A stretch of 50,856 nucleotides of DNA from a virus (taxonomy: Duplodnaviria; Caudoviricetes), in IMG/VR virus record IMGVR_UViG_3300028806_000015, positions 1 to 50,856 of that record, one strand, 5' to 3'. Under the pieces are notes generated by a model that saw only the letters and a list, made by a program, of their open reading frames with translations, was not told the DNA's origin and searched no databases. Position 1 is the first letter of the stretch, and every line of letters starts with the position of its first letter. Shown piece after piece: positions 13,408 through 40,335 of this stretch. Made by a program: the position numbers and the translations under genes.

Positions 13408-14016
13408 TCATGGAAGGCCTTTCGGGTCTGGCTCCATGAAGTAGATAAGGTCTTTAGTTGCATCAGTTAATCTCGTAAAGGTGTACTCAAAGGCTGGTAC
13501 AGACCTTGTGCAATGAACCTCAATCCCTAGAGAGGTCAATGCTTGAGTAAAGGTAGACATTGGTTCCTCTAAGAGCTTCTCGAGCCTCTTTTGGTCTTCT
13601 AAAGGCAATGCACGAGTAACTAATCTTCTAAATCCACTCGTCTCGCAAGAAAGAGATCTTATTTTTAAGATAACGTTTTTATTTTCTTCAAGTTCTTTAA
13701 TAATCTGTGGAATAATTACATCGGGGTTTTCTCTATATTTTCCAGATAGCTCTAATCTATGATACCTCTCCTCTATAATACCCTTAATCCAAGTATAGTA
13801 AGATACTCCAGATGATTTAGACATTGACTTGTCTTCTTCTGATAATATCTCCTCGAATAAAGCATCGAATATTTTCATAAATTCAGAAGTTTTCACGTAG
13901 TCAGTATTCTTCTTTTCTGAACCTTCTGTTTCTATACTTCTCATTTTTTCTATAAACTCTAAAGGAGACTTACTGATTGTCGTGATTGTTTCTTTGTTAG
14001 TATCTTTAATTCTCAT
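13408..14016 (-). CDS. Hypothetical protein
   Basis: 202-aa ORF ending the leftward operon. Confidence 0.7.
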   Translation of the reverse strand: MRIKDTNKETITTISKSPLEFIEKMRSIETEGSEKKNTDYVKTSEFMKIFDALFEEILSEEDKSMSKSSGVSYYTWIKGIIEERYHRLELSGKYRENPDVIIPQIIKELEENKNVILKIRSLSCETSGFRRLVTRALPLEDQKRLEKLLEEPMSTFTQALTSLGIEVHCTRSVPAFEYTFTRLTDATKDLIYFMEPDPKGLP

Positions 14017-14043
14017 CTTTAGGATCTTCTTTTATGTTCTTCA

Positions 14044-14280
14044 TTATTTTTCCTTTCTCCATTTAATTCCTGTGGAATCTGCTATCTTTGGAAGTAGTTC
14101 TGATTTACAAGCTGCTTCTAATATTAGAATACCAACAAATATATATATTAGTATGGGAATTAGTATGTTAAGAACAAAATATCCTATATAGTATATTGGT
14201 GCAAATATTGAATAATATAAAACATTAAATACAATGTATCTGGTTTTTGTCTTAAATTCTTCATTATATCTATTTGTCAT
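14044..14280 (-). CDS. Small membrane protein
   Basis: Long hydrophobic segment; overlaps the recT-like stop. Confidence 0.55.
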   Translation of the reverse strand: MTNRYNEEFKTKTRYIVFNVLYYSIFAPIYYIGYFVLNILIPILIYIFVGILILEAACKSELLPKIADSTGIKWRKEK

Positions 14281-15406
14281 AGTGTTCCAATATCTTATTA
14301 GCAGCAGCTTCCGAGATATACTTCAAAGAATCCGCGTTTAGCCTCTTCAACCACTCTTGTTGCGTGAAGTTTGAGATTCCTTTCTCCTTGATTAATGCAA
14401 TCACCTTGAAATAAGTCTCCGGTGTAACTCCATTATCTGCTGGACCCTCTTCATCAGCGTCGTAATTTGTGCTCTCTGTTTCGTCATCTTCTTGGCGATT
14501 AGTTAGTTTATTTAAAACTATCTCAGGTGTTGTGGCTGCAGAATCAGCGATTACATCCGCTCTAATGGGCGTACAGTCGATTGCTTCTTCCCACGCCATG
14601 ATCCCTGACAGGTTATCCGAGAACTTGTCACGGAGTGCCCAACTACGGGCTCGCATCTGCAACATTCTCTTGGGGTATGAACTCCAGGGGCCCGGTTTCC
14701 CCCACAATCTAGCTGTTATGGCATCTAATTGAGAGAACTCCCGCGTATGCGGATCTTCGCCTTTTCTGTAGACTATACAAATAGCCACAGGCATTGAGAT
14801 GTACTCGAATTGAGGGAAAACAACATCTCTTTTACGTTTTAATGCCTCTTGAATAATTTCTTTTACATCAAATTTATCTATTACATTGTCAAGTACATCT
14901 AAAAGATCATGAGCAACTAATACTTCATGTAAGATTCCGTATGCGGTAAGCTTATCAATGAATGCTCCTTTGTGCTTTATAAAGATTCTCTGTTCAATGG
15001 TCTCTGCTATTTGCTGGAATTCTCTATTGATCCTACAAATAGCAAGCAAACTATCTCCATACACACAAGGTTTCCCATTTACAAAATAAATACTCTTTAG
15101 AGATTCCATAGGGTTTAGCCCAACACTTCGACCGTAAAGCATTCTTCCCAAAACCTCATAAGGCCTTTTAAAGATCTCTTTTGGACAAATCTCGGACATC
15201 TCAGAAAAGAATGTAGCTATTTTAAAATCATTCTCTATATCCCTAAAATCATGTGGATTAACATTCATTCTTTGAGCTGCACCAACAGTTCTCTCTGGCG
15301 GATCTGTTCTGTGTACTAGGTTGTGCATTGGATAGTTAGAAGCCGTATGCGTTGCATCTGTGATTCCCTCTTGGCCAATTACACCGTTTTCTGTAAATTC
15401 TTTCAT
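14270..15406 (-). CDS. RecT-like single-strand annealing protein
   Basis: GLNPMESLKSIYFVNGKPCVYGD and GPWSSYPKRMLQMRARSWALRD motifs; near the YqaJ exonuclease gene. Confidence 0.75.
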   Translation of the reverse strand: MKEFTENGVIGQEGITDATHTASNYPMHNLVHRTDPPERTVGAAQRMNVNPHDFRDIENDFKIATFFSEMSEICPKEIFKRPYEVLGRMLYGRSVGLNPMESLKSIYFVNGKPCVYGDSLLAICRINREFQQIAETIEQRIFIKHKGAFIDKLTAYGILHEVLVAHDLLDVLDNVIDKFDVKEIIQEALKRKRDVVFPQFEYISMPVAICIVYRKGEDPHTREFSQLDAITARLWGKPGPWSSYPKRMLQMRARSWALRDKFSDNLSGIMAWEEAIDCTPIRADVIADSAATTPEIVLNKLTNRQEDDETESTNYDADEEGPADNGVTPETYFKVIALIKEKGISNFTQQEWLKRLNADSLKYISEAAANKILEHYDK

Positions 15407-15439
15407 TTTAAATTCTCCTGTGCTGTAAATATTATAATC

Positions 15440-15634
15440 TTATTCATATTTGTTCTTCCTATAATAACGATAACCCAAAGATCCTACGTATCCCCCTGCT
15501 ATAAAATTAATTAAAGATCGCCATAATAATCCAAATTCATTTAAATACTCATTTGTAAGGAGATCAATAGCAATGATACAACTTAGTCCAATAATGATAA
15601 TACCTAATATTAATATAAAGTTGTGATTTTTCAT
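15440..15634 (-). CDS. Small two-TM membrane protein
   Basis: Two hydrophobic helices and a basic C-terminus. Confidence 0.55.
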   Translation of the reverse strand: MKNHNFILILGIIIIGLSCIIAIDLLTNEYLNEFGLLWRSLINFIAGGYVGSLGYRYYRKNKYE

Positions 15635-16548
15635 TAGAAGATACTCTTGTTATTAAAGGTTAGTCTAATATTGTCCCTCTCAGGAACTGTGTAAGAATTT
15701 ACATGAATGCTTTTTCTCATGCAGATACTTCCATCGGGAAATACCGCCTTAGAAGCATTCTCCATCTCTTTTAGAATATGAGCTTTAGCTGAATCTGCTA
15801 ACGCTTTGTTCTGTGTTACTAGCTTAGTATGTTTAAGATAGTTTTCTTTATGTTTAAGTACATCTTTTGATAAGAAAATTTCTTTTTCCTCGATTGTGGA
15901 ATAATACTTAAGGAGAGAATTTTTGCTATGGGCGTTAGGTATAAAAGTGGGGGGGATTTTTTTCTCGACATGCTGTCTCCAAAATCTAGTGGATTCTTCT
16001 TCTATCTTATCTCGAATTGAACTTATTTTCTCATCATTATGAAAAGTTTTAATAAGAAGTTTATTACCCCCTATTAAAGCTGCAATATCCCAACTATCAA
16101 AACCTGTCACCAATATGTAATGGACAATTTGAATCAGATATTGCTCTGGAATAATTAATCTAGATTCATCTCCCCATAAATGAGCTTGTCTATACCCAAC
16201 GTTTTTAATCTCAAGGCCTTTATCGGTTCCTTTAATTAATCGGTCTGGATGCGCAAATAAGTACGGATACAAAGGGTGATAAATCGTATCACTCTTAGTA
16301 GTCATAAAACCGGTTCTCTTTTCATATCCTTCCGCAATCGCATCCTCAAGGGCATTGCCCCAGTATTTAGGGCCTAATTCTTCCTCAGGGCTTGCGTCTG
16401 CTTCCTCCTCTTGGCCAACTAAAACAGGCGACGTTTTATCAAGATAAATATCATAAGCTGTCCTATAAGGATCTAATCCTAGGATCGCTGCAATGTCCGA
16501 ACCTCCTAATCCATTCTTCCGTCTGATGAGTTGTTCTGTTGTTAACAT
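15634..16548 (-). CDS. YqaJ/lambda-exonuclease family protein
   Basis: RRKNGLGGSDIAAILG, WGNALE, AHPDR, GLEIKN, YLIQIVHY; GGAGG RBS before ATG16548. Confidence 0.92.
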   Translation of the reverse strand: MLTTEQLIRRKNGLGGSDIAAILGLDPYRTAYDIYLDKTSPVLVGQEEEADASPEEELGPKYWGNALEDAIAEGYEKRTGFMTTKSDTIYHPLYPYLFAHPDRLIKGTDKGLEIKNVGYRQAHLWGDESRLIIPEQYLIQIVHYILVTGFDSWDIAALIGGNKLLIKTFHNDEKISSIRDKIEEESTRFWRQHVEKKIPPTFIPNAHSKNSLLKYYSTIEEKEIFLSKDVLKHKENYLKHTKLVTQNKALADSAKAHILKEMENASKAVFPDGSICMRKSIHVNSYTVPERDNIRLTFNNKSIF

Positions 16549-16961
16549 GAGACATCCTCCGCAAACCACTCGTCATAATCATCATCTAAGCTATTTAAAA
16601 TATTAGTTAGAATAGTCTTTAATTCACTAGGGGTTGCTGAAAAACTATCGAGATATTTTGTACAATCATCTCCCCGGAATTTAATACTGCAGTTACGAAA
16701 TTCTATTTTGTCATGTAGTTCCTTTATCAGAATTACGTATTCTACGGGTCTTTTTTGTTTTTGTTCTATTTCATTGCGTTCTATTTCATTGCGTTCTATT
16801 TCATTGCGTTTGCTTTCTTCTATCTCTTCTAATGTTTTCTCTATAGCTATTATGGATGAAAATATAGGCTTTAATCTATCTTGCTCTTTTGGTGAATAAT
16901 ACACTTCCATTCTCTTAATGATATTTGAAAGGTCTTTTTTAATAATTTCTGCATCTTTCAT
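16542..16961 (-). CDS. Hypothetical protein with (RNEIE)3 repeat
   Basis: 139-aa ORF. Confidence 0.6.
   Translation of the reverse strand: MKDAEIIKKDLSNIIKRMEVYYSPKEQDRLKPIFSSIIAIEKTLEEIEESKRNEIERNEIERNEIEQKQKRPVEYVILIKELHDKIEFRNCSIKFRGDDCTKYLDSFSATPSELKTILTNILNSLDDDYDEWFAEDVSC
16763..16810. repeat. 15-bp tandem repeat x3
   Basis: GTTCTATTTCATTGC three times. Confidence 0.9.
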
Positions 16962-16972
16962 TTTGGTTATTC

Positions 16973-17143
16973 CTATTGTTTATTCTTGTTTACATTTTTT
17001 AATTTTTTGTATTCATCGTCTTTAATAACATCATTTAATAAAGTAACCAGCTTTTCTAATGAGTTGGTGGATTTGTCTACTAAACGAGCGATGTTACTCA
17101 ATTTCTCTGTTAGAAATAATGGTTCTAATTTGGGGTCATACAT
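16973..17143 (-). CDS. Small hypothetical protein (56 aa, not in ORF track)
   Basis: MYDPKLEPLF...; AGGAG RBS. Confidence 0.5.
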   Translation of the reverse strand: MYDPKLEPLFLTEKLSNIARLVDKSTNSLEKLVTLLNDVIKDDEYKKLKNVNKNKQ

Positions 17144-17181
17144 AATCTTCTCCTAATGTTGTTTGTCTAATAAATTTTGTT

Positions 17182-17403
17182 TTATCTATCTTCATGGTAT
17201 AAACTCCACTCTTCATAACTTGGACCGTCCTCGTCATCTTCTGAAGTGCCTTCTACATTCAAAAAATCCCATGCGTCCTCTTCATAATGGCTTAAATAAT
17301 TAGCCAGAAATCTATCTAATCTGCTTTCCTCAAGTTCATTAATCTTGAATTCTAATGGGGTGTCTCGAAGCTCTCTGCCCGTATATTTTCTATTCGTTAA
17401 CAT
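17182..17403 (-). CDS. Acidic hypothetical protein
   Basis: 73 aa, AGGAG RBS. Confidence 0.6.
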   Translation of the reverse strand: MLTNRKYTGRELRDTPLEFKINELEESRLDRFLANYLSHYEEDAWDFLNVEGTSEDDEDGPSYEEWSLYHEDR

Positions 17404-18003
17404 CTTCTAGTAATCTCCTTGCCCAATGTTTTGCTTGATTTGAATCTTGCTCTGTTCCTATCCCCTGGCTATATAGATATATTAATTTTCTCACACTGCC
17501 GGCTCTGCGGGGTTTCCATCAGGCAAACCGATTGTACTTTCCACAAACAAAAATTCAAACTGAATCCGGTTTAGCAGCAATCGCATCCGGTTTGTGAAAA
17601 ATTTAATCGGTTTTTCCCGCAAACCCGCAGAATGCCTTAAGCCAAAACCGATCGCGCTGCTTTCAAATAAAAATCAAAACCGCGTCCGGTTTCATGATAA
17701 CTCCATTCGGCCTACTAGCTTAGTAACCGTTATAGATTGTCTCCGACACCAACGACATCCCGCCTTCGCGGCCTTGAGAGTCCATTCAAAGCCTTTTTCC
17801 GCATCAACAGGATCACTGGGGCCGACCATTAAGTTCATCGGCTGTAAATAACGTTGAGCTAATAAGTTCATAGCTCCTACGTACTCTTCTTGTGCAGCCT
17901 CTAAAAGTAAAACCATTCCCATCTCGGTGATTTCTGAGATTCTATCCTCACTACCTATGTCTAAATATCGTTCTGCTAACCTGTATTTATCTCTTGGTGT
18001 CAT
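17390..18003 (-). pseudogene. Sel1-repeat gene interrupted by a 251-bp insertion (segments 18003-17740 and 17488-17390)
   Basis: Joined product ...AAKAGCRWCRR|KLIYLYSQGIGTEQDSNQAKHW matches Sel1 consensus spacing; 120 aa. Confidence 0.8.
17489..17739. mobile_element. Non-coding inserted element with AAACCG repeats and internal inverted repeats
   Basis: Flanked by GAGA direct repeat (minus strand); 7 AAACCG/CGGTTT copies; imperfect ~50-bp inverted arms 17498-17548 and 17590-17637. Confidence 0.6.
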
Positions 18004-18158
18004 TGTGTCGTTCTCCTATTAATGCATGTTATCTACATCTGCATAATGAATTGTTAGTAATCTAGAGAAAAGTTTAATGTTAATGCACTTTTCTACTTGA
18101 TCAAAAGGTTGCATGATGCTAAATCCTTTAATAGATAACGATATATAAAGGAGATTAA

Positions 18159-18593
18159 GTGAATTTAGTAATGATAGAAGGGTTTGTTGGACTTGATCCT
18201 AAATTCATCCCCTGTAAAAATGGGCTCGAATTGGTTAAATTAAGTGTAGCTACTACCGAAAAATGGAAAGATAGAGCCTCCCAAGAGGATCGATCTAAAA
18301 CTGAATGGCACAATGTTACAATTTTTGAATTGGAATGTGTACAATATGTAAAAGAACATGTGCGAAAAGGATCTCTCGTGTATCTGGAAGGACAATTGGT
18401 TACTAATAAATGGCACGACAAAGATGGCGTAAATAAGAAATCAGTAGACATCGTAGTGCTGAAAAAAAATAAACATAAAATATATTTAAAAGAAAAAGGG
18501 GAACAGGTAAATCAAAATAATCAACAAACACAGAATACAGATGAAATTTCTATGTATTCAATGTTTCTAGAAGACGATAGAGTTCCTTTTTAA
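18159..18593 (+). CDS. ssb: Single-stranded DNA-binding protein
   Basis: NLVMIEGFVGLDP, LSVATTEKWKD, TEWHNV, KGSLVYLEGQL; acidic DDRVPF tail. Confidence 0.97.
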   Translation: MNLVMIEGFVGLDPKFIPCKNGLELVKLSVATTEKWKDRASQEDRSKTEWHNVTIFELECVQYVKEHVRKGSLVYLEGQLVTNKWHDKDGVNKKSVDIVVLKKNKHKIYLKEKGEQVNQNNQQTQNTDEISMYSMFLEDDRVPF

Positions 18594-20509: not shown

Positions 20510-20634
20510 AAGGACATAGCTTAGCGGTAAAGCAACTCGGAATAAGAATTGAGATATTGATTGGCGATGGTAGTAGCACTTATCAAGATTTTTAGGAGAG
20601 GAAGTCATGAGTTCAAATCTCATTGTCCCTACCA
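20510..20634 (+). tRNA. tRNA-like RNA with ~50-nt insertion in the anticodon arm; anticodon unassignable
   Basis: Acceptor AAGGACA/TGTCCCT + ACCA, D-arm GCTT-AGCGGTA-AAGC, T-arm ATGAG-TTCAAAT-CTCAT; 125 nt. Confidence 0.65.
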
Positions 20635-24690: not shown

Positions 24691-25167
24691 TCATTTGTTT
24701 TCTTTATAAATATGAGCATGCGTTAGAGCAATTGCTAAAGCATCTGATGCGTCGGTTGTCAGGTCTTCGGGGCACTCCTTGATTAAAAATTTCATTAGAG
24801 TGTAGACCTGATGTTTCTCTGCGTGTCCATACCCTGTTATAGTCTTTTTTACATGAGTAGATGTGTATTCGGTTATAGGAATGTCATTCATGGCGGCAGC
24901 CAGCAAAAAAGGACCTCGAGAAATTGCGAGCAATAAACTTGATGATCCACTTACGTTTATAAACGTTTTCTCTATCGCCATTTGAGAAGGCTTAAATTCT
25001 TCTATAACTTTCATGGTTTCTAAGTAAATATGTTTAAGTCTTTTTTCAATGGTTTCTCTTGGATTGGTCTTTATCAATCCATGAGCAATATAAAGAGGTT
25101 TGGGGGCATTCTCAATGAGCCCCCAACCACTTATAGTTAGAGCTGGATCAATCCCTAAGATCTTCAT
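24691..25167 (-). CDS. ruvC: Holliday junction resolvase RuvC
   Basis: ILGIDP, MAIEKTF, VKKTITGYGHAEKHQV, DASDALAIA. Confidence 0.97.
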   Translation of the reverse strand: MKILGIDPALTISGWGLIENAPKPLYIAHGLIKTNPRETIEKRLKHIYLETMKVIEEFKPSQMAIEKTFINVSGSSSLLLAISRGPFLLAAAMNDIPITEYTSTHVKKTITGYGHAEKHQVYTLMKFLIKECPEDLTTDASDALAIALTHAHIYKENK

Positions 25168-38577: not shown

Positions 38578-40335
38578 ATGGCAATCACCACTCTACCGAC
38601 TGCTCAGCACCCAACTCATTTAGATAGGCTTGCCGTAGGTCCTTATGGAACGCCCGATGTTCCTAATACTATTTTGCAGCTGACATCAGATGATTCTGCC
38701 TTTCTGTTGCCGAATTTGACTACAGCGCAAGCAACAGCTGCGTTTTTGAATCTTGTATCTGATCCAACAGGTGCAACTACGCAAAATGCTGCTGCTGGTA
38801 TGGAAATATTTGTGACAGATGGAACTGGTGGATCGGGTGGATCCAATTTGTTCAATCATGGGCAGGGAGTCTATTACTGTTCTCAAACATCAGCAGGCCC
38901 TCCTCCTGTATTTACATGGACAAAGTTTGGAACTGGTGGTGTAGGATCTCTTCCAGGGCCTGGCGTCATCGTAACTGATGGTGCTGGAAACCCAAGCGCT
39001 ATTTCAATGTTGGTTACACCTGGAACAAATAATATCGGACTGGGTGTGGGATCTTTATCAGCGGTTACAACAGGAAGTAATAACGTTGGTTTTGGTTTTA
39101 ATGCATTACATACCATTACAACTCAATCGGCTAATATCGCAATCGGTGTTCTTGCTCAGCAAAATGCCACAGGTCAAGGAAACGTTGGAATTGGAGGAGG
39201 AACGCTTCTAGCTGTTAGTGGATCAAGCAATGTTTCCTTAGGAAATAGTTGTTTAACTCAAACCACTCTTGGAAGCTTTAATACAGCAGTTGGATTTCAG
39301 GCATTAAATGCTAACATCGGAATGGCTTTGCCAAGTGCTGTTGGATGGAACAATACAGCTATTGGGTCTAATGCAGGTTTAACGCAAAGTACTAACTCTA
39401 ATTGTACTTTTGTTGGATCTGGCTCAGATGCGATTTCACCAAACTTAACAAATGCAACCGCCATTGGTGCTTCTGCTACTGTTTCTACTTCTAATACACT
39501 GGTTTTGGGAAGTACAGGAGGAACAGGAACCAATGTTGTTGTTGGAAACACAACTAATGACTTTGCGAATCTAGCTATATTTTCTATCTTTTCTACAGTT
39601 AAGGGTTTCTTGCCCCCTCAGATGAGTCAGATGAATCGTACAACTATTAGCGCAATTCCAGGTAATGTGCCTGATGGTTTGCTTGTTTATGATATAACCA
39701 ATCATGCTCCTTATTATTGGAACGCAAATACGCTTGCTTGGGTTCCATGGGGAACTGGTGGAGGCTCTGGAACCGTGACGTCGGTTGGGACAGGAACCGG
39801 CTTGACAGGTGGTCCTATTACCACTAGTGGAACCATCTCTCTAGCTAATACAGCTGTTACTCCTGGCACCTATACTCTTGCCACTGTCACTGTAAACGCT
39901 CAGGGACAGATTACCTCGGCAAGTAATGGATCTGCTGGTTCTGGAACAGTAACCAGTGTTGGAAGTGGAACAGGATTGTCAGGAGGACCTATTACCTCTA
40001 GCGGAACGCTTTCAATTGCTAATACAACTGTAACGGCTGGAAGTTATACGAATGCCAATATCACGGTAAATGCTCAAGGTCAGCTTACAGCGGCAAGCAA
40101 TGGAAGTGGTGGAACAACTCCGACAACTGGTTCAGGAACCCTAACTGCTGGAACATTAACTGTTTCAGCAACTCAAGTAACTGCAAGTTCTAAGATATTT
40201 ACGACAAACACAACATTCGGAACAGGCGTTGTTGGCATTTTGAGTATTTCATCTCAAACTCCAGGAACAGGATTCGTTGTTACTTCGTCTTCTTCTACTG
40301 ATAATAGTTCTTTTGCATGGGTAATAATTGGTTAA
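38578..40335 (+). CDS. Tail fibre/spike protein 1
   Basis: YadA-like NxAxG beta-roll repeats; GTVTSVGTGTGLTGGPITTSGTISLANT..VNAQGQIT modules; KGFLPP..GLLVYD. Confidence 0.8.
   Translation: MAITTLPTAQHPTHLDRLAVGPYGTPDVPNTILQLTSDDSAFLLPNLTTAQATAAFLNLVSDPTGATTQNAAAGMEIFVTDGTGGSGGSNLFNHGQGVYYCSQTSAGPPPVFTWTKFGTGGVGSLPGPGVIVTDGAGNPSAISMLVTPGTNNIGLGVGSLSAVTTGSNNVGFGFNALHTITTQSANIAIGVLAQQNATGQGNVGIGGGTLLAVSGSSNVSLGNSCLTQTTLGSFNTAVGFQALNANIGMALPSAVGWNNTAIGSNAGLTQSTNSNCTFVGSGSDAISPNLTNATAIGASATVSTSNTLVLGSTGGTGTNVVVGNTTNDFANLAIFSIFSTVKGFLPPQMSQMNRTTISAIPGNVPDGLLVYDITNHAPYYWNANTLAWVPWGTGGGSGTVTSVGTGTGLTGGPITTSGTISLANTAVTPGTYTLATVTVNAQGQITSASNGSAGSGTVTSVGSGTGLSGGPITSSGTLSIANTTVTAGSYTNANITVNAQGQLTAASNGSGGTTPTTGSGTLTAGTLTVSATQVTASSKIFTTNTTFGTGVVGILSISSQTPGTGFVVTSSSSTDNSSFAWVIIG

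Follow-up and report, generated by a model that had tools for sequence, protein, structure and literature searches.

The 50,856 bp sequence analysed here, referred to below as the window, is the whole of the IMG/VR virus record IMGVR_UViG_3300028806_000015, which comes from a tailed phage and has a CheckV completeness estimate of 93%. The direction of its genes switches at about position 18,050, with minus strand genes to the left of it and plus strand genes to the right. Facing the SSB gene, the leftward early operon starts with a gene for a small protein made of Sel1 repeats, and this gene is split by 251 nt of non-coding DNA. The nature of this insertion, its relation to known kinds of element and its likely effect on the gene are considered here.

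The interrupted Sel1 gene

The minus strand open reading frame (ORF) at 17692..18003 encodes a protein of 103 aa. Its first 88 codons are Sel1-like, the last of these residues being ...CRWCRR with the final codon AGA at 17742-17740, and they are followed by 15 unrelated codons and a TGA stop (17694-17692). After a second GAGA, the frame reads KLIYLYSQGIGTEQDSNQAKHWARRLLEDVNE (KLIYLY...VNE) and then reaches a stop (17488-17390). The insertion is 251 nt (3 x 83 + 2) and the reading frame is therefore broken; excision of exactly 251 nt gives a continuous frame of 120 codons. Upstream of the second part of the gene there is only a GTG (17494-17492), which has no ribosome-binding site, in a phage whose genes use strong AGGAG ribosome-binding sites. 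The ATG of the following 73 aa ORF (17403) overlaps the end of the Sel1 gene by 14 nt. Family scans with Pfam and PHROG covered 35 of the ORFs in the window, and the 73 aa ORF had no match in either. The original prediction, an earlier note on this DNA, had described a split Sel1 ORF with AGA within GAGA at both junctions, a 251 nt spacing, a 120-codon join that overlaps the start of the next gene, and two halves free of damage; all of these features can be read at the locus (Table 1).

Table 1. Features of the interrupted Sel1 gene, its insertion and the adjoining gene.
Feature	Position	Strand	Remarks
N-terminal part of the Sel1-repeat gene	17740..18003	-	88 codons; AGGAGA ribosome-binding site upstream; Pfam Sel1 at residues 44-82
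GAGA, upstream copy of the direct repeat, target side	17740..17743	-	read in sequence
251 nt insertion (247 nt plus second GAGA), non-coding, hairpin-rich, single copy	17489..17739	-	
15 codons of the insertion plus TGA, closing the present 103 aa product	17692..17739	-	
Terminator-like hairpin and T-run	17675..17694	-	starts at the TGA of the 103 aa ORF; consensus scan; function predicted only
48 nt hairpin unit, copy 1 (AAACCGG...CGGTTT)	17645..17692	-	direct-repeat family D1; forms helix H2 in the predicted fold
Long interrupted inverted repeat	17504..17631	.	arms 17504-17548 and 17590-17631; large 3' domain of the predicted fold
48 nt hairpin unit, copy 2	17525..17572	-	direct-repeat family D1
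Sigma-70-like promoter match (TTGAAT, 16 nt, TACAAT)	17531..17558	-	faces the downstream genes; a lead only
GAGA, downstream copy of the direct repeat, final 4 nt of the insertion as delimited	17489..17492	-	read in sequence
C-terminal part of the Sel1 gene	17390..17488	-	32 codons plus stop; Pfam Sel1 20.6 bits
Next gene, 73 aa, no family	17182..17403	-	AGGAGA ribosome-binding site within the C-terminal part of the Sel1 gene

When the halves were scored separately against the Pfam Sel1 family (PF08238), the N-terminal part gave 19.0 bits (E 0.0021) and the C-terminal part 20.6 bits (E 0.00067), each below the gathering cut-off of 30.7 bits. The halves were then fused by script, with an X at the break, and compared by phmmer with three natural multi-repeat Sel1 proteins from metagenome contigs (L002, L003 and L004). 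With each of the three, the joined protein aligned in one gapless stretch crossing the junction, scoring 31.1, 28.8 and 32.1 bits, respectively. The N-terminal part alone scored 20.7, 19.3 and 16.7 bits against the same proteins. With the C-terminal part alone the scores against L002 and L003 were negative; against L004 the best stretch reached 11.9 bits, the 30.0 bits for the whole sequence being summed over five repeat hits. The joined stretch, at 28.8 to 32.1 bits, is above the best stretch of either half, and the expectation that the join would reproduce the spacing of Sel1 repeats was borne out.

As a control, eight registers were tried, with -3 to +4 residues at the join, and the 120 aa register scored highest on all three of the target proteins. 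Since the join is gapless and its register is the best of eight in every case, the Sel1 gene was, judging from its sequence, formerly continuous, and exactly 251 nt have been added to it, made up of 247 nt and one copy of GAGA.

Composition and structure of the insertion

The GC content of the insertion is 0.446, as against 0.380 for the window, and on the plus strand its AT skew is positive, as against -0.2 to -0.4 in the flanking genes. On the basis of this GC content and the reversed skew, the composition of the insertion is foreign. The four nucleotide direct repeat GAGA at both junctions is what the duplication of a target site leaves behind, and microhomology at one junction would look identical.

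The insertion is composed of hairpin units of the form AAACCGG...CGGTTT and one long interrupted palindrome. The two 48 nt units are 71% identical, are spaced 120 nt apart, and are separated from the ends of the insertion by 46 and 36 nt. A third AAACCGGA site is located 21 nt from the second. All three of the AAACCGGA sites in the 50.9 kb window are inside the insertion (1.1 expected; three were reached in 7 of 100 shuffles), as are three of the five AAACCGAT sites in the window. The long palindrome is defined by the inverted repeats I1 (24 nt, 83%) and I5 (11 nt, 91%).

A fold of three domains, at -84.4 kcal/mol (z -3.59), is predicted for the sense RNA, and none of 200 shuffles was as good. 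For the antisense RNA the predicted fold is -58.5 kcal/mol (z -2.12), with 6 of 200 shuffles as good. There are 12 G-U pairs among the 89 pairs of the sense fold and 2 among the 61 of the antisense fold. When 40 nt flanks were included, no helix joining the two junctions was predicted. Terminator-like sites are slightly enriched in the 1.4 kb scanned, with three found and 0.9 +/- 1.1 in shuffled sequences, and promoter-like sites are not, with two found and 4.6 in shuffles. A search of positions 17300-18100 with Rfam 15 at E <= 10 returned four chance matches far below threshold and no intron, ribozyme or riboswitch.

Presence in independent samples

Parts of the window occur in 24 public sequencing runs, 22 of which are labelled peat metagenome and two soil, and peat is therefore taken to be the habitat of the phage, which is uncultured. 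At least half of the sampled words are present in 11 of the 24. Four peat runs available as contigs only and having intermediate word shares (X9 to X12) were compared, seeking an allele free of the insertion. The 3' junction of the insertion is bridged by a Logan contig from X10 (record 5), and the 5' junction by contigs from X10 (record 6) and X12 (record 21), in each case with 0 differences. Because independent contigs bridge both junctions without a difference, the insertion is not an artefact of assembly. There was almost no coverage in X9 and none over the insertion in X11. No empty-site joint was found in the contigs of the four runs, whose depth is 2-6x, such that a minority form would be invisible.

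Searches for relatives of the insertion and the gene

The collections searched leave out records very near to the window, and the searches for the insertion were made either with exact or degenerate patterns, which are brittle, or in samples of genomes, so that their outcome is that no copy was found rather than proof of absence. There is one copy in the record itself, the insertion described here. Further copies were sought by blastn, as the original prediction had envisaged, and there was no match in 50,697 phage records (INPHARED), 72,556 plasmids (PLSDB) or 5,426 E. coli genomes. IMG/VR contained no match to any of four exact or degenerate patterns from the insertion. A three-motif pattern matched 14 scattered GTDB contigs by chance, with no likeness beyond the pattern, and in IMG/VR it matched two unrelated 24 nt tandem repeats of giant viruses. 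There were no matches in 401 Alphaproteobacteria genomes. In 400 Gammaproteobacteria genomes, drawn evenly, there was one 34 nt match of 85% identity (genome G673), inside a coding sequence whose product, from its translation, we take to resemble a resistance-type nucleotidyltransferase; this was read as chance, as was a 21 nt A/T-rich match in genome G003. When one translated frame of the insertion was compared with a protein collection, no protein shared words with it.

The Sel1 gene is similarly isolated. The sole close protein among 5.8 billion clusters is the 103 aa form itself, found exactly on 10 contigs. The 120 aa form was not present among these clusters or among 1.84 billion representatives. 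A HMMER search of the 1.84 billion representatives with the N-terminal part returned 11 proteins, being itself and 10 long multi-repeat Sel1 proteins (306-1448 aa). In IMG/VR, four stretches matched a pattern from the N-terminal part and none was a relative; in JGI metagenomes, 172 pattern matches yielded only three proteins, all generic Sel1 proteins. No orthologue of the gene, intact or split, was found in the collections searched. For the neighbouring YqaJ gene, 12 stretches in IMG/VR matched the pattern and none was a relative, and the 5.2 kb early region had no blastn match in INPHARED. As far as can be told from these comparisons, the disrupted gene is an accessory ORFan and not an essential conserved gene. 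Phage introns usually sit in essential conserved genes. Such genes are also the usual site of bypass cassettes, as is in part described in a study of these (bioRxiv 10.1101/2022.08.31.505936).

Comparison with known kinds of element

[quoted passage not shown] (NAR 2024, PMC11602168), these are non-coding, hairpin-forming sequences of 50-800 bp with a short direct repeat at the insertion site, and they occur occasionally in phage genomes, in 0.01% of the viral sequences surveyed. The insertion in the Sel1 gene is likewise small, non-coding, hairpin-forming and flanked by a short direct repeat. It differs in that it has no terminal inverted repeats, is single-copy with no family members found, and lies within a gene, where about 90% of the surveyed MITEs are intergenic (PMC11602168). 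Local alignment of its 45 nt ends gives a score of 8, below the mean of 10.4 for shuffled sequences (498 of 500 shuffles reach 8), and their ungapped comparison gives at most 35% identity. A classical MITE was rejected on the grounds that these termini align no better than shuffles.

By its anatomy, the closest kinds for an arrival by transposition would be hairpin elements that lack terminal inverted repeats, such as IS200/IS605 derivatives and REP/BIME clusters. The palindrome-associated elements of the IS200/IS605 group and the REP/BIME clusters moved by RAYT are hairpin-based, have no terminal inverted repeats and use a target tetranucleotide. The insertion is like these in having no inverted ends, in having similar hairpins in direct orientation toward both ends, and in having units in both orientations. 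As with IS200/IS605 elements, its single copy follows a tetranucleotide, a putative target that is repeated at its 3' end. However, its hairpins are farther from the ends than those of IS608, no Y1/HUH transposase is present among the window ORFs scanned, and REP elements, unlike this insertion, are extragenic.

Elements of the IS110/IS492 type have short flanking core repeats, excise precisely and have bridge RNAs with guides to the target and the donor. The insertion shares with these the lack of terminal inverted repeats, the short direct repeat at both ends and a structured, RNA-like non-coding body of about 200 nt. It differs in having no recombinase gene, no guide matches and no other copies. 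A bridge-RNA element was rejected as the longest match to the flanks in either orientation is 7 nt, which was equalled in 174 of 300 shuffles, and the first and last 14 nt of the insertion have no match of at least 6 nt inside it.

Group I introns overlap the insertion in size (about 200-400 nt), have strong RNA structure and interrupt protein-coding genes of phages. Their 5' splice site is preceded by a U, and their last base is a G. In the Sel1 gene, the exon would end in G or A at any position within the 4 nt ambiguity, there is no covariance match to the core (P3-P9) at E <= 10 nor any other Rfam intron match, and the host gene is neither conserved nor essential. The nearest boundaries of the U...G kind would give a 119 aa join, at -1 in register relative to the 120 aa join, with a lower score. 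Group II introns have GUGYG at the 5' end, AY at the 3' end, a domain V and a length greater than about 400 nt. The insertion begins CAAUC, ends GAGA, is 251 nt long and has no Rfam match. Both kinds of intron were rejected, and the original prediction that there are neither terminal inverted repeats nor group I or group II ends held in each respect.

Three other candidates were set aside. The repeated motifs might suggest an origin of replication with iterons, or a site for partition, but the segment disrupts the frame between two direct repeats, and such a role is considered improbable. Against a CRISPR-like mini-array stand the length of the repeats, 48 nt, and their likeness of only 71%. 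A bulge-helix-bulge intron would have a junction helix, and there is none in the predicted fold that includes the flanks.

Origin and fate of the insertion

The insertion is probably the result of a single event in which foreign non-coding DNA entered the gene, where it would be retained in both the DNA and the mRNA and would shorten the Sel1 protein. By this account 247 nt of foreign, hairpin-rich DNA would have entered a small accessory gene once, at a GAGA within its third Sel1 repeat. The entry may have been a transposition-type event that duplicated the 4 bp GAGA, or it may have been microhomology-mediated illegitimate recombination at the same sequence. With the insertion remaining in DNA and mRNA, translation would read 15 of its codons and halt at the TGA that opens the terminator-like hairpin. 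The product, of 103 aa, would retain two complete Sel1 repeats and end in a tail of 15 residues, and the final 32 codons of the original gene would be left as an untranslated remnant. The downstream genes, which have kept their own ribosome-binding sites, would be transcribed either through read-through or from the promoter-like site in the insertion. The route of entry, the non-removal of the insertion and any effect on transcription are here inferred from the features of the locus. Disruption of a phage accessory gene by an insertion is a known kind of event, which according to the MITE survey is rare in phages (PMC11602168), and this element fits no identified family.

The original prediction had put forward a non-autonomous insertion with a 4 bp duplication among its possibilities. 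Of these it agrees best with the locus, given the foreign composition, the direct repeat and the restoration of the register by exact removal, but neither terminal inverted repeats nor, in the collections searched, a second copy that would speak for mobility was found.

Several observations weigh against a simple disruptive insertion. Both halves of the Sel1 gene are undamaged, the insertion is present in every sample examined, and terminal inverted repeats are lacking at its ends. Any mobility is putative, as the collections searched yielded no further copy and no relative. The fold of the sense strand is better than its composition predicts, as a function at the RNA level in the orientation of the gene would give. 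None of the 24 runs that contain parts of the window is on record as RNA, and the persistence of the insertion in mRNA is accordingly an expectation. The first of these points would be explained if the insertion is young: the sampled copies are essentially identical (0 differences), and there would have been no time for the halves to decay.

The main rival shares the same origin and differs in the role of the insertion, which would be a retained, working RNA or regulatory cassette that splits the leftward early operon in two. It would contain an intrinsic terminator after the new stop together with a promoter or a small structured sense RNA, and the final Sel1 repeat would have been lost as a by-product. 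The location fits such a role, as the insertion is 270-510 nt into the gene that opens the divergent early region, next to those for SSB, the exonuclease and RecT, and so does its presence in all of the samples seen. The terminator-like hairpin starts exactly at the TGA, the TTGAAT and TACAAT match faces downstream, and the sense strand is favoured in the fold, including through its 12 G-U pairs. However, the stem of the putative terminator contains no more than 3 G-C pairs, the promoter-like sites show no enrichment, no Rfam family matches, no relatives have been found that could provide covariation support, and no run containing the sequence is recorded as RNA. A retained cassette is unlikely on this evidence, and it is the alternative to be taken most seriously.

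More doubtful is that the insertion is a removable spacer of an undescribed kind, either a structured RNA that is excised with ligation of its exons, through its own activity or that of host or phage enzymes, or a DNA switch independent of a recombinase, so that one locus would produce both the 103 aa and the 120 aa Sel1 proteins. The two forms of this idea can be weighed separately.

Removal from the mRNA, by a new type of self-splicing or by cut-and-ligate processing carried out by the host or the phage, would yield the full 120 aa Sel1 protein. Such removal would be exact and would restore the frame, both halves are intact, and the RNA is predicted to be strongly structured, with a bias toward the sense strand. 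At a distance of 2.8 kb there is another interrupted RNA gene, for a tRNA whose anticodon arm is longer by about 50 nt, which is a weak hint of unusual RNA processing in this system. Set against these are the lack of a group I, group II or ribozyme match at E <= 10, frame-restoring boundaries that have neither the U before the 5' site nor GUGYG...AY ends, and the lower score of the 119 aa join that U...G ends would produce. In addition, the flank-inclusive fold has no helix bringing the junctions together, there are no guide-like matches between the insertion and its flanks, no RNA ligase or splicing endonuclease is present among the 35 ORFs scanned, and the host gene is a non-essential ORFan. 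Removal from the mRNA is therefore improbable.

Excision from the DNA, with precise deletion between the GAGA copies restoring the gene in a fraction of the genomes, is slightly less probable again. The precise excision of IS492-type elements provides an analogy; the insertion likewise has direct repeats and no terminal inverted repeats at its ends, and its excision would restore the gene exactly. Yet spontaneous deletion would have to act on a very short repeat of 4 nt, the ORFs scanned include no recombinase or transposase, there are no guide matches of the bridge-RNA kind (the longest being the 7 nt match described above), and protein collections have no 120 aa form. The excisable DNA spacer of the original prediction did not find support in the four runs either, as their contigs contain no empty-site joint, a test of weak power at a depth too low to exclude one. 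The readings in which the insertion is removed from RNA or DNA draw on the exact junction and the sense-biased fold, have no support beyond these two features, and are opposed by the failed family tests and by the accessory, orphan nature of the gene.

Finally, the original prediction had suggested a ribosomal bypass element in the manner of T4 gene 60. In the work of Manning and Atkins (bioRxiv 10.1101/2022.08.31.505936), the cassettes of this kind have matched codons, a stop or rare 'hungry' codon after the take-off codon, a stem-loop whose 5' side contains the take-off codon, an A+U-rich 3' part and a gap of about 50 nt. A nascent-peptide signal that acts in the exit tunnel is another feature of such cassettes. 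The gap of T4 gene 60 and its MobA-borne homologues are like the Sel1 insertion in that each breaks the frame of a phage gene between identical edge codons; they differ in that the Sel1 gene has no homing-endonuclease gene nearby and is an ORFan rather than an essential conserved enzyme (bioRxiv 10.1101/2022.08.31.505936). That ribosomes leave the message at one AGA (17742-17740) and resume at the other (17491-17489), passing over 251 nt, is extremely improbable: the take-off and landing codons match and the resumed frame is correct, but the codon after take-off is CAA and not a stop, and is read by a tRNA-Gln(UUG) that the phage encodes, the gap exceeds the 50 nt of gene 60 fivefold, G+C-rich sequence (CCCCGCAGAGCCGGCAG) is found in its 3' part, the fold predicted with flanks does not place the take-off codon in a hairpin's 5' arm, and ribosomes reading on would reach a stop only after 15 codons.

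Other features of the phage record

The genes of the phage include a large terminase, a primase-helicase, SSB, a YqaJ exonuclease, a RecT-like annealing protein and RuvC. The terminase is closest to that of Roseobacter phage CRP-901 (39.8% identity), with those of Paracoccus, Pelagibacter and Aeromonas phages also near; together with the Roseobacter terminase these are in the range of 30-40% identity.

A set of recombination genes is found around the disrupted gene (13408-18593 and 24691-25167), with matches of 79.5 bits for SSB, 97.4 for YqaJ, 122 for RuvC and 72 for the RecT-like protein, which belongs to PHROG 561. The RecT-like, YqaJ and RuvC proteins would be compatible with the capture of foreign DNA by this phage.

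A second tRNA gene is located at 20510-20631 on the plus strand, 7 nt past the tRNA-Gln(UUG) gene. It matches the whole of the Rfam tRNA model at 41 bits (gathering threshold 29), and in its anticodon arm it has 59 nt in place of 9 nt of the model. With default settings ARAGORN does not call this gene; with introns allowed it reports an odd tRNA-Asp(atc) that has a 41 nt intron at a non-canonical position. No motif is shared between the extra sequence of the tRNA gene and the insertion in the Sel1 gene.

Downstream of the Sel1 gene, a 139 aa ORF on the minus strand (16542-16961) contains a short tandem peptide repeat, NEIER, present three times near 16763-16807. In all four of the runs compared, the Logan assemblies fragment into 45 nt contigs exactly at this repeat. 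At 18462-18497, short contigs of 52-53 nt with a depth of 17-19 and 4 differences are found in three runs, with loose ends in the A-run at 18497. These probably stem from other organisms that share the low-complexity tail of the SSB gene. A 585 aa protein encoded at 38578-40335 on the plus strand has a C-terminal K1 capsule lyase domain (PF24146, 58.6 bits), which suggests a tailspike directed against capsular polysaccharide.

Implications

The importance of the insertion would be much greater were it removed from the RNA or the DNA. If removed from the RNA, it would be a 251 nt intervening sequence lacking group I and group II features in the mRNA of a bacterial virus, which would represent a new processing mechanism. 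If it is a removable spacer, the tRNA gene close by, with its roughly 50 additional nt, would be acted on by the same processing system as another substrate. If the disruptive insertion favoured here is correct, then the Sel1 gene is another case of a small non-coding DNA in an accessory gene of a phage, and the insertion would be mainly useful as a marker linking phage and host, once other copies are found.

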